Of a stretch of 64,000 bases of DNA, positions 6,165-54,983 are shown piece by piece. The DNA comes from a virus. The stretch covers positions 69,467 to 133,466 of the IMG/VR virus record IMGVR_UViG_3300047560_000604, one strand, 5' to 3'. The notes under the pieces were generated by a model, which had not been told where the DNA came from, did not search any database, and worked only from the letters and a program-made list of their open reading frames with translations. How positions within the stretch are numbered: the stretch's first letter is position 1; each line of letters begins with the position of its first letter. The position numbers were made by a program, and so were the translations under genes.

Positions 6165-9100
6165 ATGGCATTAGTATCACCAGGCGTACAAGTAACGATC
6201 ATCGACCAAAGTCAATATCTACCTGCAGCCTCAAACTCAGTTCCTCTAGTTGTATTAGCAACAGCAACAAATAAAGCTAATGCTGCAGGAACTGGTGTAG
6301 CAGCGGCGACAACCGCAGCAAACGCAAACAAATTATATCAAGTAACAAGTCAACGTGACCTAGTTAACTTGTTTGGTTCACCATTCTTCTACAAGACAAC
6401 TAATGGTACAAGCATTCATGGATATGAATTAAACGAATACGGTCTATTGGCTGCTTATTCATTGTTAGGTGCAACAAATCGTTGCTATATCTTACGTGCT
6501 GATATCGACTTAGGTTCTTTAGTTGGTACATTGAGCCGCCCAGTAGGTGATCCAGAAGACGGTACATACTGGTTGGATACTACCAATACATCTTGGGGTA
6601 TCTATTCATTCAACTTAAGTACAGGTAAGTTCACGCAAGTTGAACCAACTGTAATCACCGACAGTCAGTATATCACTGGTGAATTGTCTGATAACTATCC
6701 AGTAGACAGCTTCGGCATAATTGGCTCATATGCAGTAATTGCTAACCCAATCGGTACTGATGGTGTTTACAATCAAGGTACATTCTTCTACAAGACATAC
6801 GATAACGTATGGGTTAAGGTTGGTTCACCTGATTGGAAGAAAGCTATCCCTGCAGTAACAGGTACAGTTTCATTCCCAAGTTTAAACATCGGTGACAAGT
6901 TTACTATTAACGTCAACGGTGATTTCTCTCGTCAACTTAACATTGATACAGGTTCTATCACTGACGTTAAAGACAGTCTAATGTCATTGGGTATTTCTGA
7001 TTTGAACGTTAGAGTAGTAGACGGTAAGTTGTCTATTGCATACGGTATGCCAGGTTCTGGTAAATATATCGCATTGTCTAATGACGATGGTACTCCATTG
7101 ACTGATATGGGTATTACAGCAGGTACATACTATGCTGCGGAAGTAGTATATGCACCAAGCTCTGGTATGCCATTATGGTCTAGTCAACAACAAAAACCAC
7201 ATCCAACAGGCAGTATCTGGATCAAGACTAGTATTGCAGGTTCAGGTATGGACGTTAAAATGTCTTCATACAGCGCAACAACTGGTACTTGGGTCAGTTC
7301 TACTGTTTCTAAGTATAGCTCAGCCGTTGCTGCCATCGGTGATCTAGATAGTTCAGGTGGTAAGTCAATTCCTACTGGTACATTGTTTGCTCAAGTAGGC
7401 GATGCATCTGGATCTGTAGTTACTCCTGATTTAGGAATTCAACTATACAAGCGTACAGCAACTGGCACAATGGTAAAAACTGGTGCAGTTTCTGATTTTG
7501 TAACATATCCTATCACTGTAGGTAAAGCATTAGTTATCACTGTTACTGTTCCAGGACAAGCAACAACAACTTCTAATTACTACACATTAGTAACTGCAGG
7601 TACAACTGCTGAAAGTTTTGTCACTGAGTGGAACGGTTTAGATATTCCTAACACAGTTGCAACAATCACAACTTCTGGTGCAATTCAACTAGAGCACACA
7701 GCAGGTGGCGACATTTATCTAACAGATATTCCACCAGGAACTTACACACCTGATTCAAATAACACACCTGGTCAAAGTAACGGTTTGTTAGCTGAGATCG
7801 GTTTCTCTGCAACTGACGGCACAATGCAAGTTGGTGCAGTTGTTCCTTTCGTGGCAACTAACGTAACTCAATCAGAGTCTAGCGGTTCAGGCACAGGCGC
7901 AGTATTGACAGTTACTAATCGTGGTACATGGTATGGCTTCTCCGTAACTACTAACGGTTCAGGCTATGTAGTCGATGATACAATTACTATTGACGGTGCT
8001 GATATCGGTGGTGCAAGTGGTGCAAACGACTTAGTATTAACGGTTGAGTCATTATCTCCATTGAAACTTGCTTACTTGTCAGGTACACCTAGAGTAAACT
8101 ACTCAGTTGCGGCAAGTAACTGGGAAATCTTAGACTATGTTGCTAACGAAGGTGCTCCAGCAACTAACCCAGCAAATGGTACAAACTGGTTCTTCTCAAC
8201 AGCAACTCAAGTTGATATCATGGTTAACCAACAAGGTTCATGGAAAGGTTATAAGAACGTAAACTTTGACTCTGATGGTCACCCATCAGCAACAGGTGTT
8301 AACTCTACTGATCCATTAGGACCAATCATCGCAACTACTGCTCCAACAACTCAATCTGATGGAACAGCATTAGTAACTGGTGATTTGTGGTTAGATTCAA
8401 GTGACTTAGAAAACTATCCAAAACTAAGCCGTTGGCAATTAGTTGATGGTGCAGAACAATGGGTTGCAATTGATAACGCTGACCAAACAAGTCAAGCAGG
8501 TATCGTATTTGCTGATGCTCGTTGGGCCAACTCAGGTACAGTTGATCCAGTAAGTGATCCTCTAACAAGTATCACTACATTGTTGACAAGCAACTACTTA
8601 GATTTAGATGCACCTGATCCAGCACTATATCCACAAGGTATGTTGTTGTTTAACACACGCCGTTCAGGTTATAACGTTAAACAGTTCACAACTAATTATT
8701 TCACAGCAGCTAAGTATCCAGATGCTTATCCAGCGAATGATTCAAACCCAGCACACGTGCCAAAACTTCCAGCATACACATATACATGGGTATCTGTAAG
8801 CGGTTTGCAATCTAACGGTGCAGCATACATGGGTCGTAAAGCACAACGTAATTTAGTTGTTCAAGCGATGAAGGCAGCAATTGGTACTAATCAAAGTATC
8901 CGTGAAGAAGATACATTCTTCAACTTGATTTCTGCTCCTAATTACCCAGAGCTACAACCTGATATGGTTACATTGAATAATGACCGTAACAACACAGCTT
9001 ACATCATTGGTGACACCCCATTGCGCTTACCAGATCAAGCAACTGACTTGACTAACTGGGCTACAAACGCAGCAGGTGCAACAAGCACAGGTGAAGCAGG

Positions 9101-9836: not shown

Positions 9837-10466
9837 ATGGCAACAGCCTCACAATCACTGTTTAATATGACCGTAGCAGCGGACAATGGTACCAATGCAC
9901 AAGGTCTATTAATGCCTAAACTACAATATCGTTTCAGAGCTTTGTTCTTGAACTTTGGTGTAGGTGGTTCTACACAAGAACTTACAAAACAAGTTATGGA
10001 CATCACACGTCCTCAAGTTTCATTCGATGAAGTTACATTAGACGTTTATAACTCACGTGTGTATCTAGCAGGTAAGCACTCATGGTCTGAAACAACTATC
10101 AACCTACGTGACGATGCACAAGGTAATGTTACTAAGTTGGTTGGTCAACAAATTCAGAAACAAATGGACTTCGTTGAACAAGCATCAGCAGCTACAGGAC
10201 AAGATTACAAATTCCAAATCAATTACGAAGTACTTGATGGTGGCAATGGTGTATTGACTCCTACTGTATTAGAAACATGGGAACTTTATGGTTGCTTCAT
10301 TAAGACAGTTAACTATAATAACATGGACTATAAGACAAGTGATCCAGCAACTATCCAGTTGCAAGTTCGCTTTGATAACGCAGTTCAGTCCCCATTGACT
10401 TCTGGTATCGGTACTAACGTCGGTCGTGCATTCGGCGGCGCGGCAGTAACTGGCATCGGCGGCTAA
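9837..10466 (+). CDS. gp19: Tail tube protein
   Basis: Follows sheath; tube-type pattern (RVYLAGKHSWSETTINLRDD, WELYGCF, TIQLQVRFD). Confidence 0.85.
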   Translation: MATASQSLFNMTVAADNGTNAQGLLMPKLQYRFRALFLNFGVGGSTQELTKQVMDITRPQVSFDEVTLDVYNSRVYLAGKHSWSETTINLRDDAQGNVTKLVGQQIQKQMDFVEQASAATGQDYKFQINYEVLDGGNGVLTPTVLETWELYGCFIKTVNYNNMDYKTSDPATIQLQVRFDNAVQSPLTSGIGTNVGRAFGGAAVTGIGG

Positions 10467-19166: not shown

Positions 19167-19790
19167 ATGATAACAGTAGATATTTTACAACAACTATGCC
19201 CTAAGACAAAACGTAGTGTCTTAGAACTATACGCAGTTCCATTACATGAGGTAGCTGAGTATTATGACATGTACGATAATATGCATCGTGCAGCAGCTTT
19301 CATAGCGCAAACAGCACATGAGTCGGGTGGCTTTCAATTCGTGAAAGAGAACTTAAACTACAGTGCTAAAGGGTTAATGGGGACCTTTAAAAAATATTTC
19401 CCCACAGAGGATCTTGCTAAACAATATGAAAGAAAGCCTGAAAAAATTGCTAATCGTGTTTATGCTAATCGTATGGGGAATGGAAGCGAGGAGTCTGGTG
19501 ATGGATATCGTTTCTGTGGTCGCGGGCTTATCCAATTAACCGGTAAGAACAACTATACTAAATTTGCAGAAGACTTGGGAATATCAGTGGAAGAAACAGT
19601 AGCTTACTTAGAAACACCCGCTGGAGCAGTTAGCTCTGCCGGTTGGTTCTGGGATAATAACAATTTGAATCAATACTGTGACAAAGATGATTTTGTTACA
19701 TTGACAAAAAGAATCAACGGCGGTACGATTGGTTTAGAAGATAGACAACATCATTATCACTTAGCATTAGACTTATTGCAAGGTCATTAA
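19167..19790 (+). CDS. Glycoside hydrolase family 19 lysin (probable endolysin)
   Basis: AFIAQTAHESGGF..VKENLNYS, DGYRFCGRGLIQLTGKNNY, AGWFW, TKRINGG..GL.DR. Confidence 0.9.
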   Translation: MITVDILQQLCPKTKRSVLELYAVPLHEVAEYYDMYDNMHRAAAFIAQTAHESGGFQFVKENLNYSAKGLMGTFKKYFPTEDLAKQYERKPEKIANRVYANRMGNGSEESGDGYRFCGRGLIQLTGKNNYTKFAEDLGISVEETVAYLETPAGAVSSAGWFWDNNNLNQYCDKDDFVTLTKRINGGTIGLEDRQHHYHLALDLLQGH

Positions 19791-43087: not shown

Positions 43088-44556
43088 TGAAAATCAATAA
43101 CTTACTAGAATCTAAAAAACTTCCAGGACAATTCGGGGCACAAATTATGTCTCCTGAAGAGTTCGTTGCTGCTGACGAAGCAGGCATTGATGTCGATCCT
43201 AACAAGATCGACCAAGAACATGAAGAAGTAGCAGAAGATAAACCACAACGTGATACAAATCGTTTGTGGCAAATGATTACTGACTATGAGCGTAGAGCTA
43301 AAAATTCAAGTAGTGATATTCGTAAGCAACACTACATGAAGATGGCTGACGAATTACGTGCTAAGTTACCTACAAATGAAGCAACTGAACTGCCGGCTCC
43401 ACAGAAAGAATTCGGAGATCAAGAGTTCCAAGACTACATGAAACGTATAGTTGGCACACCTGATATCGATAAGAAAACAGGCTTGCCAAAGAAAGCTAAA
43501 GATAAGATTAGTAAGAAGACCGGTGAAGTTAAGCCGGGTGCTGAAAAGTATATCAGTGGTAAGACTAAATCTGACAAGTTCAAGATGCCTTACGTTCATC
43601 GTTCGAGCGTAGTAACTTACTACGATGCTGATGGTAAAAGATTCAGAGAAGAAGACGTTATTAACGCATTAAAAGTTCGTCCCAAATCGTTGTTAAAGCA
43701 AAACGAAAAGATGAAGCATTCAAACGGAGAGCTAGAACAGTTCTTCAACATTGGCTTCGCTGCATTGACAGGTATCGCTGTTGATGAATCTACAGGGAAA
43801 CTAATCATTGTTAACACATGTCCTGGTGCTGGTTCATGTAAAGTTGATTGCTTTGCTATGAAAGGTGGTAAGGTTCAGTTTAAGAATGCTTGGCTAAGTG
43901 ACGGTAAGATTCTTACATATCTATTGAATGATCCAAACGGATTCTTCAACCAATTATCAAAAGAGATTAGCAAAGAAGAAAAACTAGGCGACAAAGGTGG
44001 TTACACTGTGACTATACGTTGGCATGACGCTGGCGATTTCTTTAGCCCAGAATATTTAGACATGGCATTGAAGATTGCTGAAACACATCCGGGTGTTAAG
44101 TTCTATGCTTATACTAAGATGGCTAATGCAGCCTTAGCTAATAAGCCAGGTAACTTTATTATCAACTGGTCAGAAGGTGCTCACACTTCTCAAGAGAAAC
44201 AAGTTAAGCAAGATGACCCTGAACTAGAGAAGACAAAGAACAGTCGTATCGTTCCAGAGAAGTTATTCTATGACTTGTTGAAGAAAGATGCTAAGGGTAA
44301 CTTAGATAAAGAAGGTGCTGATGCTGAAGGGGCTGGAGGACGTTGGGTAATGCGTGATCCTACTGCAACTAAAGAGTTGAAGCAACGTTTAGCTGATTAC
44401 TACGGTATCAGTGCTAATAGTATTCTAAACTATGACGAGTATACAAGTAAGCCAAAAGTTGCTGGCATGAAGTACAACGTAATTGTTGCGCCAGGTGAGG
44501 GTGACATTAGTGCTAACGATCCTAACGTATTAGCTACACTATTATTGAAGCACTAA
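43087..44556 (+). CDS. GP88-like Cys-cluster protein with capsid-targeting-like leader
   Basis: MKINNLLE start (same as upstream gene); TCPGAGSCKVDCFAMKG, IRWHDAGDF, FYAYTK. Confidence 0.65.
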   Translation: MKINNLLESKKLPGQFGAQIMSPEEFVAADEAGIDVDPNKIDQEHEEVAEDKPQRDTNRLWQMITDYERRAKNSSSDIRKQHYMKMADELRAKLPTNEATELPAPQKEFGDQEFQDYMKRIVGTPDIDKKTGLPKKAKDKISKKTGEVKPGAEKYISGKTKSDKFKMPYVHRSSVVTYYDADGKRFREEDVINALKVRPKSLLKQNEKMKHSNGELEQFFNIGFAALTGIAVDESTGKLIIVNTCPGAGSCKVDCFAMKGGKVQFKNAWLSDGKILTYLLNDPNGFFNQLSKEISKEEKLGDKGGYTVTIRWHDAGDFFSPEYLDMALKIAETHPGVKFYAYTKMANAALANKPGNFIINWSEGAHTSQEKQVKQDDPELEKTKNSRIVPEKLFYDLLKKDAKGNLDKEGADAEGAGGRWVMRDPTATKELKQRLADYYGISANSILNYDEYTSKPKVAGMKYNVIVAPGEGDISANDPNVLATLLLKH

Positions 44557-44613
44557 ATATATGGATAGAACAGTTTTTGAATTCTATTTGAAGTATAAGG
44601 GAAACCCACCAAA

Positions 44614-45054
44614 ATGTTGTCAGACAATTTAAAAGTATTATTAGCAAGCACCCAAAGTTTTGCTATCAAGTCACAAAACTTTCACTGGAACGTTGAAGGT
44701 AGTGATTTCCCTCAGTATCACGAATTCTTTGATACATTATACGGAGATGTAGCTGGAACAATTGACAAGATTGCTGAGTACATTAGAATCTTAGGTCACT
44801 ATACACCTGGCAGCTTAACTCGCTATGCTGAACTATCAGTTATTCAAGACCAAACAAAGATCCCACGTGCTGAATTGATGTTCACTGAATCACTGCAAGA
44901 TTGTGAAACAATGATTCAATTAGTAACACAAATGTTCGATGAGGCAGCAAATGAAAAACAACATGGTATAGAAAACTACATGGCTGAGTTACAAGATTTG
45001 TATGCTAAGAAAGCGTGGTTCATTCGTTCGATATTAAAGAAAGCACGTGAGTAA
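44614..45054 (+). CDS. dps: Dps / ferritin-like DNA protection protein
   Basis: QNFHWNVEGSDFPQYHEFFD..Y...DKIAEYIRILG ferroxidase motif; TAAATA at 44554-44559. Confidence 0.9.
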   Translation: MLSDNLKVLLASTQSFAIKSQNFHWNVEGSDFPQYHEFFDTLYGDVAGTIDKIAEYIRILGHYTPGSLTRYAELSVIQDQTKIPRAELMFTESLQDCETMIQLVTQMFDEAANEKQHGIENYMAELQDLYAKKAWFIRSILKKARE

Positions 45055-47048
45055 TGAGAGCATCTCAGTTTACAGTCGAAAATACATTAGATGAAGCCCC
45101 AATGAATCCTACCGCTTTTGCTCAATCAATTGAGCAAGGTGAAAAGAAGGGTGTCTTAGTTGGGTACGAGTTTGAAGTATGTATTCCTCGTGCTACTATC
45201 AGTAACACGGGTGATAACTCAAAGGGGATCCTTGATAAAATTGAAATCTACATGGAAGAATTCTTAGAATCAACAAACACTCAGGATATTTCAGTAGAAG
45301 AAATGTCTAAGTTGTTCCCTTTCAAGAAGCCAATCAAAGGTTATGATAGTCTCAGTGATTATTATACAAAGGATCAAACTAATAGATTGCAAAAAGGCAT
45401 TGAACTATTCAAAGAATTCCCAGAAGATATAAGAGCAAAGTTCATTCCTATCACTAAGCAGAGATTGAAAAGTTATTCTAATAAAAAAGCAGATCCCAAA
45501 TCAATGTCATATCAAATTGCGTTTCTAGGTAGATTTGGTAGAGACGTATATTCGAGCACTAGAGGTGAAATTGAATCCAAGGCGCATGATTTAATGGAGC
45601 TTTTGGATGGGAACGATTATTACTATGAAATGTTTGGCACACTAATCCCCCATACTGCATATGCAAACATGTTGAAATATTTCAATATCGATCCGGCGAG
45701 GGTGTGGAGTGCGATGCAAGACTATGTGTATGATGAAGAAGATGATGATGGATATTATGCTGCTGCTTCTGGCGTATTGAAGCCTGCTCTTTCTAAGACA
45801 ATGGGATCAGAAGTAATAATATTCAGCGACTACCACGAAGATACAAAAGATTTAGACAAGTGGTACATAGAACCAGATGGTAGCTTATCAGCCGATGATG
45901 AAGATGATACTACTGCTGAGATAGTTAGTCCCCCATTGCCAGCAATGAAAGCTATAGATGCATTGAAGAAATTCTATTCAATGGCATCAAGTTTAAATCT
46001 ATATACTAACAACACTACAGGCTTACACATAAATGTAAGTATTCCTGACACACTAGATGTAACAAAGTTAGCAGTGTTCTTGGGTGATGATTATGTGTTA
46101 CAACAATATAACCGCGAAAATAACGGTTACGCAAAAGGAACAATGCAACGACTAAACTATGCAATGGTTAATAAATTAGATTCATACGCTCGTTCACCTA
46201 TGCAAACTACTAACAGTAGAAGTAAAAAGCCAGGGGTATTTGGTCAACGTAAAACATCAAATCTACCTAACTACAAGATGCTGAATGATATTATTAAAAA
46301 TCACACTGAAGGTCATACAGCTAGTATTAGTTACAATGGTAAGTACATTTCATTTAGACATGCAGGCGGTGACTATTTAAGTGACTACAATAAGGTGTAC
46401 AACACAGTTGGTCGCTTTGTTCGTGCGATGATTATTGCTAGTGATCCAAACTTATATAAACGTGAGTACCAAGAAAAATTAGCCAAGATTGCTACTATGG
46501 GAGATCAACTACGCAACGTGCGTTTTGGTGACACTAATAAAATGTTAACTATTATTCAGAAACATGGACTTCCTGTTATATCTGCACCAGTTGCGATTGT
46601 TAATCCTAAGTTTCCTATCGAATCTGTAATCAAGAGTTTTGGTAGAAATGAACAATGGTTCCCTGGTCCTAAAGCTGGTGCTGTAAAAACAAGACCTTCA
46701 ACTGAAGCTGAGAAGCAATTATTAATTAGCAGGATTCTTAACGCAGACACCAAACAGTTAGTTAATCAGGCTACTAGTTTTGTAACTGTAGATATTATTC
46801 CAAAGACTCCACAAATGGTAGGCATGATATTAGCTAATCCCGGTAACATGCTCAGAACAGTAGTGCAGCCAGTGTTCGGTAGAGGTAACAACGCACAAGC
46901 GTTCTTCACGACTTCAACCTCTACTTACCCATTGAATAGTCCAATCGCACAAGCTGCGATGAAAGCTATACTACAAGATAAGTGGGGTGCGATTAAGCCC
47001 GGTGCTAAAACGAAACCAAATGCCTCAAGGTTCTTAGACAAGCCATGA
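45054..47048 (+). CDS. Putative amidoligase (COOH-NH2 ligase type 2) 1
   Basis: GYEFE, IEPDGSL, EIVSPP, TTGLHINVS, ISFRHAGG; leader MRASQFTVE. Confidence 0.8.
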   Translation: MRASQFTVENTLDEAPMNPTAFAQSIEQGEKKGVLVGYEFEVCIPRATISNTGDNSKGILDKIEIYMEEFLESTNTQDISVEEMSKLFPFKKPIKGYDSLSDYYTKDQTNRLQKGIELFKEFPEDIRAKFIPITKQRLKSYSNKKADPKSMSYQIAFLGRFGRDVYSSTRGEIESKAHDLMELLDGNDYYYEMFGTLIPHTAYANMLKYFNIDPARVWSAMQDYVYDEEDDDGYYAAASGVLKPALSKTMGSEVIIFSDYHEDTKDLDKWYIEPDGSLSADDEDDTTAEIVSPPLPAMKAIDALKKFYSMASSLNLYTNNTTGLHINVSIPDTLDVTKLAVFLGDDYVLQQYNRENNGYAKGTMQRLNYAMVNKLDSYARSPMQTTNSRSKKPGVFGQRKTSNLPNYKMLNDIIKNHTEGHTASISYNGKYISFRHAGGDYLSDYNKVYNTVGRFVRAMIIASDPNLYKREYQEKLAKIATMGDQLRNVRFGDTNKMLTIIQKHGLPVISAPVAIVNPKFPIESVIKSFGRNEQWFPGPKAGAVKTRPSTEAEKQLLISRILNADTKQLVNQATSFVTVDIIPKTPQMVGMILANPGNMLRTVVQPVFGRGNNAQAFFTTSTSTYPLNSPIAQAAMKAILQDKWGAIKPGAKTKPNASRFLDKP

Positions 47049-47485
47049 AGATAACTGACATCCTAACAGAAGCTGGTGAACAACCTATATACTATTTTGC
47101 ATACGGTATGCTGACTGATCCTGAGATTATGGATGGTATTCCATTAGTTGGTAAAGCAGAACTACCTAACTTTGAATTTGAAATGTTCATGTATGCAAAT
47201 GTACTCCCCACACCAAGAAGTAAAGTTTATGGAACTCTCTGGGAAGTTAACAGAGAAGTTATTAGTAGATTGGATCAAATTGAAGGCTACCCTCAGTTGT
47301 ATGACAGAAAGATGGTTCCGGTCATATCTAATGGTAAACGATATGAAGCGTTCGTGTACACACTAACACCAGAATCAAGAGAAGAACTTGAAGGTTCTGA
47401 ACCCAGCAAAAGTTACATAAATAAACTAATAAGGGGATATAAAAACGCAGGTGTTCCCCTAGAACAATTACAAAGAACACTATGA
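47045..47485 (+). CDS. Gamma-glutamylcyclotransferase (GGCT/AIG2-like)
   Basis: YYFAYGML, VYGTLWEV, LDQIEGYP.LY; leader MKITDILTE. Confidence 0.85.
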   Translation: MKITDILTEAGEQPIYYFAYGMLTDPEIMDGIPLVGKAELPNFEFEMFMYANVLPTPRSKVYGTLWEVNREVISRLDQIEGYPQLYDRKMVPVISNGKRYEAFVYTLTPESREELEGSEPSKSYINKLIRGYKNAGVPLEQLQRTL

Positions 47486-49398
47486 GAGCAATAGATTTTT
47501 TAGTAGAACAGCAGAGACTTGATGAAGTTAACATGAGCCCACGCTCATTGAAGATGCTTGTTAAGAGCATCAATGCCACTGCTGGTATGGAATTTGAAAT
47601 GGGTGTTCCTAATATTGAAGATCCAGACGAATACGAATACGAAAACGACTACGATTCAGATGAACGTGCTAGTAGTTGGGGTAACATTGAAGATTTCTTT
47701 ATGGGCGGCGACGGCAATAATAGTCGTAGTGACGTTCGTTCAATGATTGAATCCATGCAAGAACATTACAATGAGTGGTATTTTGAGCAAGAAGAAGAAG
47801 CATGGCGAGATGAAGGTCAAGAATTCTTAAAAGACTATATTTTAGAAAATGATGAGTTTGACGAAGATGATGCAGAAGAACAAGCTAAACAAGAAATTCG
47901 TGAAGCAAACCCTGAACTACCAGAAGAATCACATGACTTTGAAGAATTAGTAAGAGTTAGAAAAGACGAGATATTTGAAGAATTCGTACAAGACGAATGG
48001 GACAATGACGGTCGTATATATGATAGAGCCAAGGATGAGTTTAGAGATAATTATAGCGTCCCGGATGAAGGTGATTGGCTGAGTGACAATTACGAATGGA
48101 TGACTGACGTATACCATTCGTTTGGTAATAGACATGATGTATTCTGGCCCTATCAAACTCGTTCAGGTGGTGAAGGTGATTTAGGTGATCTAGCTGACGA
48201 ATTTAGTAGAGCAATCGGCAGAGGTGTGAACACATATGCAGGTCACGGTGGTCCTAGAGAAGCAGGTGAATACACGATTGAAACTGACCCTAGTATTGAT
48301 ACTGATGATAGCGGCGATGCCGGATTAGAATTTGTTAGTCCACCGTTACCATTAACTGAATTAGTAGCCGACCTAGCTACAGTAGTTAAGTGGGCTAATG
48401 AGTATGGTTGTTATACAAACGATTCAACTGGGTTGCATATGAGTGTTAGTGTCCCTAATTATTCTATTGATAAGTTAGACTATGTTAAGTTAGCATTGTT
48501 ATTAGGTGACGAGTATGTGTTACAACAGTTCGGTCGTCAATCAAATAACTATTGCCGTAGTGCTGTAAGCAAAGTTAAAGGGAAGCAACTATCACAAGAA
48601 GAATCTAAAAACATTCTAGACCAAATGAAGAACGGTTTATCGTTGGCAGCAAGTAAATTGATTCACACTGGCTTTACGGACAAGTATACAAGTATCAACA
48701 CTAAAAATGGTTATGTAGAGTTTAGAAGTCCCGGTGGTGACTGGTTGAATGAAGATTTAGATAAGCTAACAAATACATTGTATCGTTTTGTTGTTGCATT
48801 GGATGCAGCATGTGACCCACAAAAGTACAAAGAAGACTACTATAAGAAGTTATACAAGATGTTGAATCCTGATGATTCAACTGATGATTATGGTAAGATG
48901 ATTAATGATTTTAGTCAATATGCTACAGCAGTTGGTGGAGCCCCACAAAAAGTTGTTGCTAATTTCCGTAGATTAGCATTAGCAACATTGAAACAATCAC
49001 AGGGCAAAGAATCTGGTCAATGGTGGTTTAACGTTGCTATCAATGGTCAACGAATTGAACTTGTTGCTGACAGCCCTGAACATGCATGGGAAGAAGCAGT
49101 AAAAGATAACCCACACTGGGGCAGAATGAACAAGAATGATGCTAAGATTACTAGATTGCGCCCATTTGTAGATACTAGACCAGCAAATGGTACAACAGCA
49201 CAAGCAACAGCAGGGGAACCTCAACCGTTAAGTCAACCTCAACAGCAACAATATCAAATCTATCGCAAAGATTCAGGAACCACTATTACATCATTCATGG
49301 CTGCAGACGATGAGGATGCAATGCAAAGACTAGGGCACCATTTAGCATACGTGCCCTCACAAGCACACAACTTGTATGGTGTACGTAGGGCACAATAA
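47482..49398 (+). CDS. Putative amidoligase (COOH-NH2 ligase type 2) 2
   Basis: GMEFE, IETDPSI, GLEFVSPP, STGLHMSVS, VEFRSPGG; leader MRAIDFLVE. Confidence 0.8.
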   Translation: MRAIDFLVEQQRLDEVNMSPRSLKMLVKSINATAGMEFEMGVPNIEDPDEYEYENDYDSDERASSWGNIEDFFMGGDGNNSRSDVRSMIESMQEHYNEWYFEQEEEAWRDEGQEFLKDYILENDEFDEDDAEEQAKQEIREANPELPEESHDFEELVRVRKDEIFEEFVQDEWDNDGRIYDRAKDEFRDNYSVPDEGDWLSDNYEWMTDVYHSFGNRHDVFWPYQTRSGGEGDLGDLADEFSRAIGRGVNTYAGHGGPREAGEYTIETDPSIDTDDSGDAGLEFVSPPLPLTELVADLATVVKWANEYGCYTNDSTGLHMSVSVPNYSIDKLDYVKLALLLGDEYVLQQFGRQSNNYCRSAVSKVKGKQLSQEESKNILDQMKNGLSLAASKLIHTGFTDKYTSINTKNGYVEFRSPGGDWLNEDLDKLTNTLYRFVVALDAACDPQKYKEDYYKKLYKMLNPDDSTDDYGKMINDFSQYATAVGGAPQKVVANFRRLALATLKQSQGKESGQWWFNVAINGQRIELVADSPEHAWEEAVKDNPHWGRMNKNDAKITRLRPFVDTRPANGTTAQATAGEPQPLSQPQQQQYQIYRKDSGTTITSFMAADDEDAMQRLGHHLAYVPSQAHNLYGVRRAQ

Positions 49399-49883
49399 TG
49401 AGAGCAACTGAATTTATCTCTGAAGTATTTGAACCCAATAAACAAAACTGGGAATGGGCTCGCCTTGGAAATAGCGAAGTAACCGCATATTTCAAAGTCG
49501 GTAAAAGAGATTATATTTGGCAAGCATTTACACGAAGTAGTAATCCCAAGAAGTGGGAAATACAATTTCGTTTAATGAGAGATTATGAAAACGATCCCGA
49601 AGAATTAGACTTGTTTGGTAAGACTGGTACAGGTAATTCAGCGGAAGTAATGTCAACTGCTGTGGATATTACAAGAGCATTCTTAAAAGAATACGGACTT
49701 GATAGAGTAGAAGAAATTACATTCAACGCAAAAGAAGATAGTCGCATTGGATTATATGCTAAGATGATTAAAAGACTATTACCCGATTGGGACTTGTATA
49801 GTAAAAAAGACCCAGTTGATGGAATGGTATTCTCTCTTACTGACCGTAGAGCGTATGACAAGCCTGAGAACAAGATTACATAA
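49398..49883 (+). CDS. Hypothetical protein with capsid-targeting-like leader
   Basis: Leader MRATEFISE; no family recognised. Confidence 0.75.
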   Translation: MRATEFISEVFEPNKQNWEWARLGNSEVTAYFKVGKRDYIWQAFTRSSNPKKWEIQFRLMRDYENDPEELDLFGKTGTGNSAEVMSTAVDITRAFLKEYGLDRVEEITFNAKEDSRIGLYAKMIKRLLPDWDLYSKKDPVDGMVFSLTDRRAYDKPENKIT

Positions 49884-49887
49884 GAAC

Positions 49888-49981
49888 ATGCCTTAGGACC
49901 GTGGTAGTTACTACCATGAAGGCGTCGGGCGGCTGCTGCCCTAGAACAAGCGATTCGCTACCGCAAGTTCTTTAAGTGAGC
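49888..49981. ncRNA. Candidate compact structured RNA with possible pseudoknot
   Basis: GC-rich intergenic stretch with stems ATGCCTT/AAGGCGT, TGGTAG/CTACCA, GGGCGG/CTGCCC, AGAAC/GTTCT, GCG/CGC; loop TTCGC can pair with GTGAG. Confidence 0.5.
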
Positions 49982-50009
49982 TTTTTCCTTTTATAGATAA
50001 ATATATATT

Positions 50010-50600
50010 ATGCGAGCCGAATCATTTATCCAAGAATCCGCTGTTAGAGAACTAGCAGACAAACTTCCAACCCTCAAAAGAACTGACTATGATGCAATCG
50101 ACCGTTTAATGAAACGAGTTGGTATTAAACATAATGTATCTTCTAAAAAGTTGCATAATCTATTTGTCAGTAAATACGGACATAGTCCAGATCACTGGGT
50201 AAAGCGCATCAAAAGTCGTTTGGGTGAGACCGACGTAGATCCTACAGACGATAAATCTGCACAGATTGACAAATTTATTAAGTGGTCTTACAACGCATTG
50301 AACATACAAGAGCCCCTACCAAAATTCCATTTTAGTAGAGATACAGAAGAAGCACAGGATCAGCATCGTACTGGTTCACATGACAGCCAGGGCAATATTA
50401 CAGTTTACATTGAGAATCGTAACTTAGTTGATATCTTCCGCACAATATTCCATGAGCTTGTGCATCACAGACAAGACCAATTAAACATGATTAAAGATGG
50501 TGACAGTTATCCAGGTAGTCCTATCGAAGCAATGGCAGATATGATGGCTGGAAAGTACATAAAGATTTATGGCAAACAACATCCCGAAATCTTCCAATAA
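50010..50600 (+). CDS. Zincin-like metallopeptidase with capsid-targeting-like leader
   Basis: RTIFHELVHHRQ (HExxH), downstream IEAMA; leader MRAESFIQE; ATAAATA 49997-50003. Confidence 0.7.
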   Translation: MRAESFIQESAVRELADKLPTLKRTDYDAIDRLMKRVGIKHNVSSKKLHNLFVSKYGHSPDHWVKRIKSRLGETDVDPTDDKSAQIDKFIKWSYNALNIQEPLPKFHFSRDTEEAQDQHRTGSHDSQGNITVYIENRNLVDIFRTIFHELVHHRQDQLNMIKDGDSYPGSPIEAMADMMAGKYIKIYGKQHPEIFQ

Positions 50601-50740
50601 AGTACAACAAAAGTTAAAAGAAGTCCCTGACGATTTGTTCGAGAAGGGTAAAGACGACATTGATTTTAAAAGAGAAGTGATTAAAAGGCAGTATAATAAG
50701 GATCCTTTAAGTATCTTTACACTAATAAAGAGAATGATTA

Positions 50741-51415
50741 ATGAGAGCAAATGAATTCGTTACCGAAGACATGTCACGTAGAGGATTTCTAGGTGCGCTA
50801 GGTGCAGGTGCAATGGCTGCATCAGGGGTTGCTCAAGCTAAAGTTAATCCAGTTGCTAACAATCCTAAAGTAGAATTGTTAATGAAGTGGGCTAAGAAGT
50901 TTATTACTAACCCATCGGAGTTAGCGGCATTCATGGCACAATGCGCCCACGAAAGCGACAACTTTGCAACAATGGAAGAATATGGTTCACCTGAACGTTT
51001 TGCTAAGAAGTACGACATTCAACACAATCCAGACAAAGCAAAACAACTAGGCAATACTAATCCAGGCGATGGCATCAAGTATCGTGGTCGTGGATATATT
51101 CAATTGACTGGTAAGTACAACTATCAAAAAGCAGGTGAGTGGGTATCCAAGTATATCAATCATCCAGTTGACTTTGTTAAGCAGCCTGATTTAGTTGCAA
51201 CACCCACTGCGGCTGCGTTGAGTAGCATTTGGTATTGGATGACATTCGTTCACCCTAAGGCAAAGAATTTCAGTAACACCAAACAAGTTACTAAGCACAT
51301 CAACCCTGGGTTGAAGGGTCAAAAGAATCGTGAACAGAAAGCTAAAGATTGGCAAGCTGCATTGAATGTTAAACCTATTAAGCCGGGTAAGTCATTTAAG
51401 GTAGCTTCAAGATGA
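50741..51415 (+). CDS. Second GH19 lysin, with capsid-targeting-like leader plus Tat-like signal
   Basis: AAFMAQCAHES, DGIKYRGRGYIQLTGKYNY, WYW, TKHINPG; N-terminus MRANEFVTE-DMSRRGFLGALGAGAMAASGVAQA. Confidence 0.85.
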   Translation: MRANEFVTEDMSRRGFLGALGAGAMAASGVAQAKVNPVANNPKVELLMKWAKKFITNPSELAAFMAQCAHESDNFATMEEYGSPERFAKKYDIQHNPDKAKQLGNTNPGDGIKYRGRGYIQLTGKYNYQKAGEWVSKYINHPVDFVKQPDLVATPTAAALSSIWYWMTFVHPKAKNFSNTKQVTKHINPGLKGQKNREQKAKDWQAALNVKPIKPGKSFKVASR

Positions 51416-51948
51416 GAGCATTTGAACTAACTAAGAATAAATGGGAACTGCTTATATCTAATGCAGATAAGCATGAAGCTGGTTCTGAATTAGTTAACTT
51501 AGTTAAACATGCCTATTCCGTAACACCAAAAGGTTCGATGATCCAAAGTTTGCGTGATGTTATTCCTAGTGATTGGAATGTTATTGATTGGGACCAAGAT
51601 CCTGACATTGACGCATGTGTGTTCTATCGTAAGAATAGACCGAGTGAAGATTGGGTGGGAATTAAAATACAAGGTGTCGGGCATGATGGCACTAGACAAA
51701 GCAAAGACAAAGCAATCGGTAAAGTTTTGGAACTGTTACAGAAGCAAGGTGTTTGGATTGAATCCTCAGATGCCATGCGTCATGTCTTACATAAGTTAAA
51801 TGCACCAAATGTTAAGAATGAACAGTTCTTACAAAATCTGTTCGGTGATCCAAACCTGCACATGGTTCAAGATGACACATATCGTAGAACTTTACAAAAC
51901 GGTCAAGAGATTCAAGAAACCGTATTCGGTCATCCTAAGCTAAAATAA
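51412..51948 (+). CDS. Hypothetical protein (MRAFEL... start)
   Basis: ATGA-coupled; shares ATGAGAGCA start with other island genes. Confidence 0.75.
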   Translation: MRAFELTKNKWELLISNADKHEAGSELVNLVKHAYSVTPKGSMIQSLRDVIPSDWNVIDWDQDPDIDACVFYRKNRPSEDWVGIKIQGVGHDGTRQSKDKAIGKVLELLQKQGVWIESSDAMRHVLHKLNAPNVKNEQFLQNLFGDPNLHMVQDDTYRRTLQNGQEIQETVFGHPKLK

Positions 51949-51961
51949 TTACGTAAAAAGT

Positions 51962-51990
51962 TTGACTTCTCTACGCAGTTCATATATACT
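51962..51990 (+). promoter_or_regulatory. sigma70-type promoter for the replication genes
   Basis: TTGACT, 17 nt, TATACT; AGGAGA RBS before ATG 52015. Confidence 0.8.
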
Positions 51991-52014
51991 AACTACTTCT
52001 TTAGGAGATTATAT

Positions 52015-52275
52015 ATGACAGCAAAAATGTTTAGTGGCGACCAGAAAATCAAACTTACCCAACTTATCAATGAAGGCATGGCAGTTATGCACGAGATTGA
52101 TACGTTGCAAGGTGGTTTAACTGACACTATCAAAGCAATCGCAGAAGAATTGGAAGTAAAACCTTCTGTACTCAAAAAGGCTATTCGTGTAGCGCACAAG
52201 GCTGCGTTGACACAAACTAACGCCGACAACGAAGAACTCAACACTATTTTGGAAACTGTAGGTAAGACTCTCTAA
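52015..52275 (+). CDS. dsDNA-binding protein (T4 DsbA / DUF2312-like)
   Basis: 86-aa helical protein, EID.LQ..L.D.IK.IAEELEVKP.VLKKAIR pattern; directly upstream of the polymerase. Confidence 0.6.
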   Translation: MTAKMFSGDQKIKLTQLINEGMAVMHEIDTLQGGLTDTIKAIAEELEVKPSVLKKAIRVAHKAALTQTNADNEELNTILETVGKTL

Positions 52276-54983
52276 TGTCATACGTTGATGCTATTCATTC
52301 CCGTGATGAAGACCGTATCTATGTAGTAGAGAGAACCCCTGAGGGTAAAAGAGCATACAAAGAGTTTCCGGCAAACTATGTTCTTTACTACGAAGACCCA
52401 AAGGGTAAGCAACGAAGTATTTACGGTAAACCAGTAAGTAGATTCAGCACAAGAAAACGACAAGAGTTTGAAAAAGAACGTAGAATTCATTCTGGTAAAC
52501 AACTTTACGAGAGTGACGTTAACGTTGTATTCCGTGCGTTGAGTGAAAACTACTTAGGTGTTGAGCCACCTAAACTTCACACATGCTTTTTCGACATTGA
52601 AGTAGACTTTGACCCAGTTAAGGGTTTCAGTCCTACGAGTGATCCATTCAACCCAGTAACTGCTATCTCGTTGTATTTGGATTGGCAAGACACATTGGTA
52701 ACATTGTGTATTCCACCTAAACACATGAGTAAAGAAACAGCAGAAGAAATTGCAGGCAAGTTTGAAAACACAATCATCTTTGATAATGAAAAGGATATGT
52801 TCGACACATTCTTTCAGTTGATTGAAGATGCTGACGTTATGACTGGATGGAACTCAGAAGGCTATGATATTCCATACATGGTCAATAGAGTTACACGTGT
52901 AATGTCAAAAGACGACACTAGAAAGTTCTGTCTAATGGGACAGCTTCCTAAGCCTCGTGAGTATGAACGATTTGGTAAAGTTGAAATGACTTATGACTTG
53001 ATCGGTCGCATTCACATGGACTATTTACAGTTGTATAAGAAGTACAACTATGAATCACGCCACAGTTACAAACTAGACTTCATCGGTGAGATGGAAGTCG
53101 GTGAGAACAAAACACAATACGAAGGTACGCTTGACCAATTGTATAACAAGGACTGGTTTAAGTTCTTAGAATACAACAGACAAGATACCATGTTGTTGGT
53201 TAAGATTCACAACAAACTAAAATTCTTAGAGTTAGCTAATGCTTTGGCTCATGAGAACACGGTTTTATTGCCCACTGTTATGGGTTCAGTAGCTATGATT
53301 GAAATGGCTATTATGAACGAAGCACATGCACGTGGAATGGTAGTCCCAGACAAGAAAAGGAAGAAAGAAAATGAAGAAGATGTACAGCCAGCGGCAGGTG
53401 CCTATGTTGCTAATCCCCAAAAGGGAATGCATGACTGGGTCGGAGCCGTCGACATTAACTCGCTCTACCCGTCAGTTATCCGCGCACTTAACATGGCGCC
53501 AGAAACCATCATTGCTCAGGTCAGACAGGACCTCACAGACCAATACATGAAAGAAAAAGGTCAGCGCCTTGCTAAAGCTAAGAAGTTTTACAAAGAAGGC
53601 GATGACGATGTAACTGGTGCTATCTTGTGGGAAAACTTGTTCGGTGCTTTAGAGTACACAGCAATTATGGAACAACAGAGAGGCACATTGCTTTGGGTTG
53701 ACTATGAAGATGGTCGCTCTGTTCAAATGTCAGCAGCCGAGATTTGGAAGATGGTCTTTGACAGTCACAAGCCTTGGATGATTTCAGCGAACGGTACAAT
53801 TTACACTTATGAAAAAGAAGGTGTGATTCCCGGATTGTTATCTCGTTGGTACTCAGAACGTAAAGAGACACAAGCAAAAGCAAAAGAAGCATATGGCACT
53901 GACATGTACGACTATTACGATAAGCGTCAGTTGGTTCGTAAGATTCTATTGAACTCAGCTTACGGTGCGTTGTTGAACGAACACTGTCGTTTCTATGACA
54001 AACGTATTGGTCAATCAGTTACACTAAGTGGTCGTCAGATTACTAAGCACATGATGAGCCATATCAACGAGTGTATCGAAGGTGAATACAAACTTGATGG
54101 TCGTTCAATCGTATACGGTGACACTGACTCTTGTTACTTCACTGCTTGGCCCGCATTAAAGGATCAAGTTGCAAATGGTGAAATGAATTGGGACAAAGAA
54201 ACTTGTATTGGATTGTATGATTCAATCGGTGAGAACGTTAACGATAGTTTCCCTGCATTCATGGAGAAAGCATTTCATGCTCCTCGCAAGAATGGTGCAA
54301 TCATTAAAGCTGGTCGTGAATTGATTGGTGATCGTGCAATCTTTATCGTTAAGAAGCGTTATGCTATCAACATCTTTGATAAAGAAGGTAAGCGTAAAGA
54401 TAAAGACGGTGCTCTCGGTGACATTAAGGCTATGGGTCTAGATTTGAAACGTGCTGATACGCCTAAATACGTACAAGAATTCTTAATGGAAGTTCTTAGT
54501 ATGGTTATTCAAAAGGGTAAGACACGTGAAGAAGTGATTGAAGTTATCAAAGACTTTAAGCGTATGCTATCTGAACAAGAATCTTGGACTAAAGGCTCAC
54601 CTAAGTCAGTTAACAAACTAACTACTCATACTAACAATTGGAAGAAGACAGGTAAGTGCGGCGTCGGTCATGCGATGGCAGCTATTAACTGGAACTATCT
54701 GCGTGAAATGAATAGCGACAACTATTCTCAAAAGATTGTTGACGGTATGAAGATTGTAGTTTGTAAGCTAAAGCCTAACCCATTAAAGATGACCAGTGTT
54801 GCTTATCCAACTGATGAACTACGACTACCAGATTGGTTCAAAGAGTTACCATTCGATGATGACTTAATGGAATCAACATTGGTAGATGAAAAAGTTGACA
54901 ACTTACTGGGCGTACTAGATTGGAAGATACGTGAGAACACAGACGTTAAATCTACGTTTAACGATTTGTTCTCATTCGGGTAA
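52275..54983 (+). CDS. gp43: Family B DNA polymerase
   Basis: Exo I FFDIEV, TGWNSEGYDIPY, YN.QD; pol DINSLYPS, KILLNSAYG, YGDTDS, KKRY. 902 aa, uninterrupted. Confidence 0.97.
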   Translation: MSYVDAIHSRDEDRIYVVERTPEGKRAYKEFPANYVLYYEDPKGKQRSIYGKPVSRFSTRKRQEFEKERRIHSGKQLYESDVNVVFRALSENYLGVEPPKLHTCFFDIEVDFDPVKGFSPTSDPFNPVTAISLYLDWQDTLVTLCIPPKHMSKETAEEIAGKFENTIIFDNEKDMFDTFFQLIEDADVMTGWNSEGYDIPYMVNRVTRVMSKDDTRKFCLMGQLPKPREYERFGKVEMTYDLIGRIHMDYLQLYKKYNYESRHSYKLDFIGEMEVGENKTQYEGTLDQLYNKDWFKFLEYNRQDTMLLVKIHNKLKFLELANALAHENTVLLPTVMGSVAMIEMAIMNEAHARGMVVPDKKRKKENEEDVQPAAGAYVANPQKGMHDWVGAVDINSLYPSVIRALNMAPETIIAQVRQDLTDQYMKEKGQRLAKAKKFYKEGDDDVTGAILWENLFGALEYTAIMEQQRGTLLWVDYEDGRSVQMSAAEIWKMVFDSHKPWMISANGTIYTYEKEGVIPGLLSRWYSERKETQAKAKEAYGTDMYDYYDKRQLVRKILLNSAYGALLNEHCRFYDKRIGQSVTLSGRQITKHMMSHINECIEGEYKLDGRSIVYGDTDSCYFTAWPALKDQVANGEMNWDKETCIGLYDSIGENVNDSFPAFMEKAFHAPRKNGAIIKAGRELIGDRAIFIVKKRYAINIFDKEGKRKDKDGALGDIKAMGLDLKRADTPKYVQEFLMEVLSMVIQKGKTREEVIEVIKDFKRMLSEQESWTKGSPKSVNKLTTHTNNWKKTGKCGVGHAMAAINWNYLREMNSDNYSQKIVDGMKIVVCKLKPNPLKMTSVAYPTDELRLPDWFKELPFDDDLMESTLVDEKVDNLLGVLDWKIRENTDVKSTFNDLFSFG

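Follow-up and report, generated by a model that had tools for sequence, protein, structure and literature searches.

Injected phage proteins described so far act in the cytoplasm, as do IPI* and Alt of T4, or in the entry channel, as do the core proteins of T7. Wall-cutting enzymes are also carried in virions, among them the T4 tail lysozyme gp5 and the T7 internal core protein gp16, which has a wall-cutting domain; these reach the wall from outside or through the entry channel, and none has been described with a signal for export from cytoplasm to periplasm. Bacteria themselves export peptidoglycan hydrolases through the twin-arginine (Tat) pathway, and the wall amidases AmiA and AmiC of Escherichia coli carry Tat signal peptides. 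Serial addresses on a single protein are known from the thylakoid lumen, whose proteins have a bipartite transit peptide: the stromal address is removed and a Tat-type lumen signal is exposed. The T4 internal proteins IPI, IPII, IPIII, and Alt are unrelated, fast-changing cargoes with a common short leader that ends in aliphatic-x-Glu, and late-promoter-like motifs lie ahead of their genes. ipII and ipIII begin MKTYQEFIAE, and ipI has a longer form that ends in I-T-E (NC_000866). The first 10 residues of IPIII are enough for packaging, residues 4 and 7 of the leader serving in targeting and residues 8 and 10 in processing by gp21; heads take up 20 to 200 copies of fusions to this capsid-targeting sequence (CTS) and deliver them to the cell under infection (PMC9026906). 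Ejection proteins of SPN3US and phiKZ-like phages are likewise head cargo cut by the prohead protease (PMC5694885). SAR and secreted endolysins (P1 Lyz, phage 21 R, and Mu gp22) are wall hydrolases with a weakly hydrophobic Gly/Ala N terminus after basic residues, and SAR domains are exported by Sec, are not cleaved, and remain N-terminal (PMC9239132).

The gene described here, at 50741 of the window (the whole 64-kb stretch of DNA that was analyzed), encodes a leader of the T4 internal-protein pattern, followed by a Tat-type signal and a GH19 wall hydrolase, and it differs from each of these systems in a particular way. T4 internal proteins are cytoplasmic cargo without an export signal, whereas cleavage of this leader would expose a Tat signal, and relatives of this phage join the cargo into polyproteins. 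The signal resembles bacterial Tat signals in its S-R-R-x-F-L motif, its weakly hydrophobic h-region, its A-x-A site, and its peptidoglycan hydrolase passenger; unlike them it comes from a phage gene, is preceded by a capsid leader or placed deep in polyproteins, and would, as we propose, be read only after proteolysis and delivery to another cell. The likeness to thylakoid bipartite peptides, a second address that proteolysis exposes once the first destination is reached, is an analogy and not a homology: the protease is a different one, and the first compartment here would be a virus capsid. SAR endolysins, finally, lack the Tat consensus, the conserved cleavage-type site, the capsid leader, the internal polyprotein copies, and the placement of the segment outside the fold that are found here. 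No paper joining a capsid-targeting sequence with twin-arginine was found in a literature search, and pairing twin-arginine with endolysin or prohead returned nothing comparable.

The window is the right-hand part of a 133,466-bp IMG/VR record, which has a G+C content of 40% and which CheckV estimates to be 38% complete. Its DNA polymerase (52275-54983) is at most 48% identical to those of cultured jumbo phages of the T4 superfamily, a comparison that includes Sinorhizobium phage Phosso, Agrobacterium phage Atu_ph07, Vibrio phage 2.275.O, and the Rak2/121Q group. A sequencing-run search placed the window, nearly complete, within freshwater metagenome runs, possibly those of the sample it came from, with no RNA run among the listed holders. 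The source is an uncultured freshwater giant T4-like phage. Two relatives were informative: G006 (258,859 bp, 73% complete), the closest of the large ones, whose DNA polymerase is 75 to 77% identical to that of the window, and G005, with 58% identity. The polymerase is a single ORF in the window and two ORFs in G006 (G006:C1:72956-76791) and in a further relative (G004:C1:2138-5990), the halves covering residues 1 to 536 and 537 to 902 with about 1.1 kb between them. Searches for near relatives and for proteins across 50,697 records of cultured phages gave no near relative of the GH19 gene, of its first 40 residues, or of the M48 cargo described below, and no member of the leader-signal family; the best GH19 matches, at 42% identity or less, are domains within large tail proteins, without leader or signal. 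A homologue of a neighboring leader gene in Ralstonia phage RsoM2USA begins MKLIQKLSE and gave no usable proteome link.

The features of the gene are listed in Table 1. The original prediction had placed a leader, an S-R-R-x-F-L motif, a weakly hydrophobic stretch, and an AxA site at 50741-50839, ahead of an intact GH19 domain, and every element stands exactly there. Pfam assigns residues 56 to 175 to GH19 (PF00182) with 55.2 bits against a cut-off of 25.5, and solved phage GH19 endolysins match the protein at E values of 1e-15 to 1e-20. An AF2 model built with 58 homologues has pLDDT values above 90 for residues 41 to 210 and below 50 for residues 1 to 36, which are unstructured and, in the model, stand outside the GH19 domain. 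Within the domain, all 58 sequences keep E71, in an H-E-S motif, and E80; we take them to be the GH19 catalytic acid and base. A second GH19 protein, encoded at 19167 with tail genes around it (sheath at 6165, tube at 10466), is 31% identical to the first. The original prediction saw neither address in it, and its start, MITVDILQQL, bears this out: leader, RR motif, and hydrophobic stretch are all missing. Opposite-strand ORFs across the region of the 50741 gene are short and without a family match.

Table 1. Features of the GH19 gene and its surroundings (window coordinates)
Feature	Coordinates	Strand	Length	Details
ATAAATA motif, T4-late-promoter-like	49997-50003	+		precedes leader gene 50010-50600
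GH19 gene, whole	50741-51415	+	224 aa	leader, Tat-type signal, linker, and GH19 muramidase/chitinase-fold domain
Capsid-targeting-like leader	50741-50767	+	9 residues	MRANEFVTE; ends in aliphatic-x-Glu; predicted head-protease cut after E9
Tat-type signal	50768-50839	+		residues 10-33: n-region D-M-S, R13 and R14 (50777-50782), G-F-L, Gly/Ala stretch, A-Q-A before K34
Linker, short	50840-50860	+		length varies among homologues; low model confidence
GH19 catalytic domain	50861-51370	+		residues 41-210
Other GH19 gene, for comparison	19167-19790	+	207 aa	in tail gene block

The leader is not peculiar to this gene. The pattern M-[R/K]-x3-[F/I/L/V]-x2-E stands at the start of 9 of the genome's 200 ORFs, compared with 3 of 1,053 internal Met positions, and six of the nine ORFs form one island, 45054-51415. 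The 83 leader ORFs collected from here and from related loci give the consensus M-R-A-x-E-F-I-T-E. Its positions vary as protein positions do, with F6, the aliphatic residue 7, and E9 kept, and one relative's leader begins with GTG; in most leader genes the leader is also conserved as DNA (ATGAGAGCA...). Set against the T4 leader, F6, V7, and E9 of MRANEFVTE fall on residues 7, 8, and 10. The wider island (45054-51948) is a run of leader genes, one after another, that encodes two amidoligase-like proteins (45054 and 47482), a GGACT protein (47045, leader MKITDILTE), a DUF6934-like protein (49398), and an HExxH protein (50010) besides GH19, with a weaker leader at 51412; several of these modules are fused as polyproteins in relatives. 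A 61-codon ORF (50569-50754) without a family match spans the 140-nucleotide gap between the 50010 and 50741 genes and overlaps both; in relative L022 these two genes abut, and the GTG start of the leader overlaps the preceding stop.

Motifs of the sequence ATAAATA directly precede several leader genes and tail genes. The motif is no more frequent in the window than chance predicts (17 copies versus 17.8 expected); 16 of the 17 copies are on the + strand, which is the gene strand, and most stand just before gene starts. It is this strand bias and position that suggest a role as late promoters. The copy at 49997 is the probable start of a transcript that includes the GH19 gene. Sites of the motif include 4238, 9811, 11654, 16279, 39160, and 49997, and some copies lie only 6 to 7 nucleotides from ATG (49997; genome positions 24755 and 25898), so that late mRNAs made from them would have almost no untranslated leader. 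Scans for sigma-70 promoters and terminators stayed at chance level, and Rfam had no match in 44000-53000.

Behind the leader, the motif reads S12-R13-R14-G15-F16-L17 and is followed by a weakly hydrophobic h-region of 19 uncharged, Gly/Ala/Ser-rich residues, longer than the minimum of 13 taken for Tat signals; it ends at A-Q-A and has a mean Kyte-Doolittle hydropathy of 1.2. The Tat model TIGR01409 scores the protein at 16.0 bits, slightly below its cut-off of 16.7. Conservation among homologues, a check named in the original prediction, speaks more clearly. RR-x-[F/L]-[L/I/M] is found in 58 of the best 120 of 1,345 homologues, and in these 58 both arginines are invariant, G-F-L is at least 90% conserved, and TIGR01409 matches every sequence at an E value of 1 or less (best, 3e-6), while the RR codons differ synonymously among relatives. 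The uncharged stretch past RR-x has a median length of 18 residues, is 66% G/A/S/T, and has a mean hydropathy of 1.24; it ends in [A/V/T]-Q-A↓K, where the arrow marks a predicted cut, in 42 of 65 RR proteins. A 40-position profile of leader plus signal, made from 11 loci, retrieved 108 clusters (E ≤ 1e-3) among 1.84 billion representative proteins; nearly all keep the same leader, cut site, and RR-G-F-L, and 32 of 66 clusters match PF10518 (TAT_signal) at an E value of 1e-3 or less. These features, with the variable length of the linker behind the conserved A-Q-A↓K, are those of a predicted cleavable Tat signal and do not fit a SAR anchor.

About half of the family, G006 included, carries at the same position, after L-[D/E]-E↓[G/D]-W-[K/R], a Gly/Ala-rich segment without RR. 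The twin arginine is thus not essential to the general design of the family, given the segment in G006. Many of the non-RR variants end in small-x-small sites, like cleaved signals. Many non-RR relatives (P0056-P0120; L018, L024, and L025) have a Lys/Arg run right behind the leader, then a Pro/Gly/Tyr-rich low-complexity segment (core GPGPYGGYGY) and a hydrophobic segment.

The predicted cut site and the signal are closely coupled. Counting back from the first R, the fourth residue is E in 62 of 65 RR proteins and the sixth is I, V, or L in 58. In 13 of the 65 the RR motif lies 37 to 158 residues from the N terminus, and up to about 280 residues in the wider representative set; aliphatic-x-Glu of the T4 gp21 type abuts these internal motifs too, whatever their distance from the N terminus. 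The 643-residue polyprotein of L004 is a clear case: a GGACT domain, a second module, and a DUF6934-like module precede cut site, signal, and GH19. The window encodes the GGACT, DUF6934-like, and GH19 modules in separate genes (47045, 49398, and 50741), every one of which has a leader. Where the modules of L004 join, the M-R-A portion is lost and L-E-E or V-G-E is kept, so that a leader end and a module border represent one type of site; a mature C-terminal module would, on this reading of the sequences, begin one or two residues before S/D-R-R. Residues 392 to 449 of P0211, the last module of a polyprotein with TonB-type cargo, match the N terminus of L097 2492-3283, which corresponds to gene 51 of phage 121Q; that protein is annotated as virion structural in Rak2/121Q-like coliphages, a weak link of the modules to the virions of cultured relatives.

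The best case for reading the signal as one for export comes from the domains that lie behind it. Pfam was applied to those clusters from the profile search that reach 150 residues, 66 in all. The domains behind the signal were GH19 (21 clusters), TonB_2/TonB_C (5 to 7), Peptidase_M48 (4), Phage_lysozyme2 (2), LysM (2), TolA_C (1), and SLT (1). In ten proteins with an internal signal, GGACT, GNAT, and DUF6934 occurred solely before RR, and wherever a domain was found after RR it was GH19 or TonB/TolA. By family assignment, then, the domains before the signal are of cytoplasmic types, and every recognized domain behind it is envelope-acting. A nearly identical leader and signal precede an M48-like zinc peptidase of about 220 residues in relative L003, in a gene that adjoins the GH19 gene.

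The leader would call for a head protease of the gp21 type. Scans with PF03420 and PHROG found no head protease, scaffold, portal, or capsid gene on the 38%-complete fragment, and no head protease, portal, or capsid gene on three near relatives, themselves fragments. In G006 and G005, both of which have leader-bearing GH19 polyproteins, Peptidase_S77 scored above the cut-off. Their proteases keep the His and Ser motifs of T4 gp21, and the gene order in both is an acidic protein, the protease, and then a coiled-coil scaffold and a gp23-like capsid gene. The capsid propeptide ends in L-A-E↓S or L-S-E↓S at the position that L-T-E↓A occupies in T4 gp23. The genes that directly follow the GH19 polyprotein of G006 (L021 8013-12407) were considered as a lysis cassette and rejected; they are CsgF- and CsgG-like (curli secretion), FecR-like, and CHASE2-domain genes, and ahead of these lie genes for two small membrane proteins that match no family.

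We propose that the protein is a head-packaged, injected peptidoglycan hydrolase with two serial addresses, one for the head and one for Tat export, and give this reading a probability of about one half. By likeness to T4, the 9-residue leader would bring the late-made protein into the prohead core. Comparison with the relatives suggests that a gp21-type protease would then cut after V-T-E, so that the virion form would start at D10, two residues before S-R-R-G-F-L. If T4 biology is a guide, the protein would leave the head with the DNA and enter the cytoplasm of the next host, where, as the motif and the nature of the cargo suggest, the Tat machinery of the host could recognize the now N-terminal RR signal and export the refolded enzyme. 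Signal peptidase would cut at A-Q-A↓K, and the free GH19 enzyme would attack the wall. What the sequences contribute to this proposal are the elements themselves, strictly conserved also in their order, the pairing of cut site with RR in polyproteins, the envelope cargo, and the T4-type head module of a close relative. Against it stand the TIGR01409 score slightly short of the cut-off, the non-RR segment of G006, the failure to find the family in cultured phages, and the consideration that export of a wall hydrolase early in infection brings no obvious benefit.

The two-stage addressing put forward in the original prediction therefore survives in part: the likeness of the leader, the cut-site/RR coupling, the envelope cargo, and the relative's protease favor it, and the fragment itself carries no head genes. 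That the leader masks the signal is a separate matter. It does so convincingly in the polyprotein relatives, where RR lies deep inside the chain, and only there, because a 9-residue leader is no longer than an ordinary Tat n-region; for the 50741 gene it is too short to prove masking, and the producer cell might export the precursor without any cut.

This last point leads to an alternative that we consider unlikely, if worth serious attention, in which the precursor is itself Tat-competent with the leader as its n-region, and the protein is a late-exported secreted or SAR-like endolysin of the producer cell, packaging being a side fate or a second use. The position of RR, at residues 13 and 14, is within the range of natural Tat n-regions, and the GH19 protein of the tail block could be the tail lysin, which would leave 50741 as the lysis enzyme. 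The two basic residues and the weakly hydrophobic Gly/Ala stretch also fit SAR domains (PMC9239132). Yet the same signal is found 100 to 280 residues inside polyproteins, where an N-terminal signal would be unworkable without cleavage, and it precedes cargo that is not endolysin at all (TonB/TolA C-terminal domains and M48 peptidase); the conserved A-Q-A↓K and variable linker favor a cleaved signal over a SAR anchor, and no holin or spanin gene was identified adjoining the 50741 gene. The possibility that Tat plays no part seems to us improbable. The protein would then be released in the envelope at ejection, its hydrophobic segment would insert in the inner membrane, and GH19 would be held at the entry site, a scheme for which the wall-cutting domain of T7 gp16 and the abundance of non-RR Gly/Ala-rich segments in the family, G006 among them, can be cited. 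It leaves the near-invariance of S-R-R-G-F-L in 65 proteins and 108 clusters unexplained unless a cytoplasm-facing TatC reads the motif, and the small-x-small endings of many non-RR variants again resemble cleaved signals.

The remaining alternatives concern the start of the protein. The leader might have nothing to do with the capsid and be a translation-start cassette, or the tag of some other protease, on an ordinary Tat-secreted hydrolase. A fragment without head genes and the conservation of the leader at the DNA level are compatible with this, but we find it more improbable still, for the leader varies in the manner of a protein with F6, aliphatic 7, and E9 kept, it starts with GTG in one relative, and polyproteins drop M-R-A while they keep aliphatic-x-E at module borders; moreover, the leader agrees with the tested T4 CTS at the functional positions too, and relatives encode gp21-type proteases. 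The suggestion in the original prediction that Met11 is a second translation start, giving a separate Tat-exported isoform, fared worst, and we consider it very improbable. Codon 11 is ATG in this phage and its nearest relatives, whereas among 65 proteins the position is M in 37 and L, I, or F in 28 (15, 12, and 1, respectively), the codon is TTA in L026, ATA in L031, and ATT in L004, and no Shine-Dalgarno-like sequence lies ahead of codon 11.

Taken more broadly, the proposal of two serial addresses points, tentatively and at somewhat less than even odds, to a practice of giant T4-related phages of fresh and seawater: they may load their heads with effectors bound for the periplasm, namely wall hydrolases of the GH19, SLT, and lysozyme types, M48-like peptidases, and TonB/TolA C-terminal domains. 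A cut site and a Tat signal would precede every one of these effectors, and the host Tat system would export them after injection. For hundreds of uncultured phage polyproteins the findings offer a rule of annotation, to cut after aliphatic-x-Glu and read the new N terminus. If the reading is true, it would add a choice of compartment to T4-based protein delivery, and it is testable with the T4 capsid-targeting tool kit. It would amount to a two-step address code, capsid and then periplasm, a form of protein delivery not described for bacterial viruses, and would raise questions of early envelope remodeling, of the exclusion of rival phages or colicins by TonB/TolA-like cargo, and of resistance to abortive defenses. 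Such phages would place pre-made enzymes in the periplasm of a new host before any phage gene is expressed.
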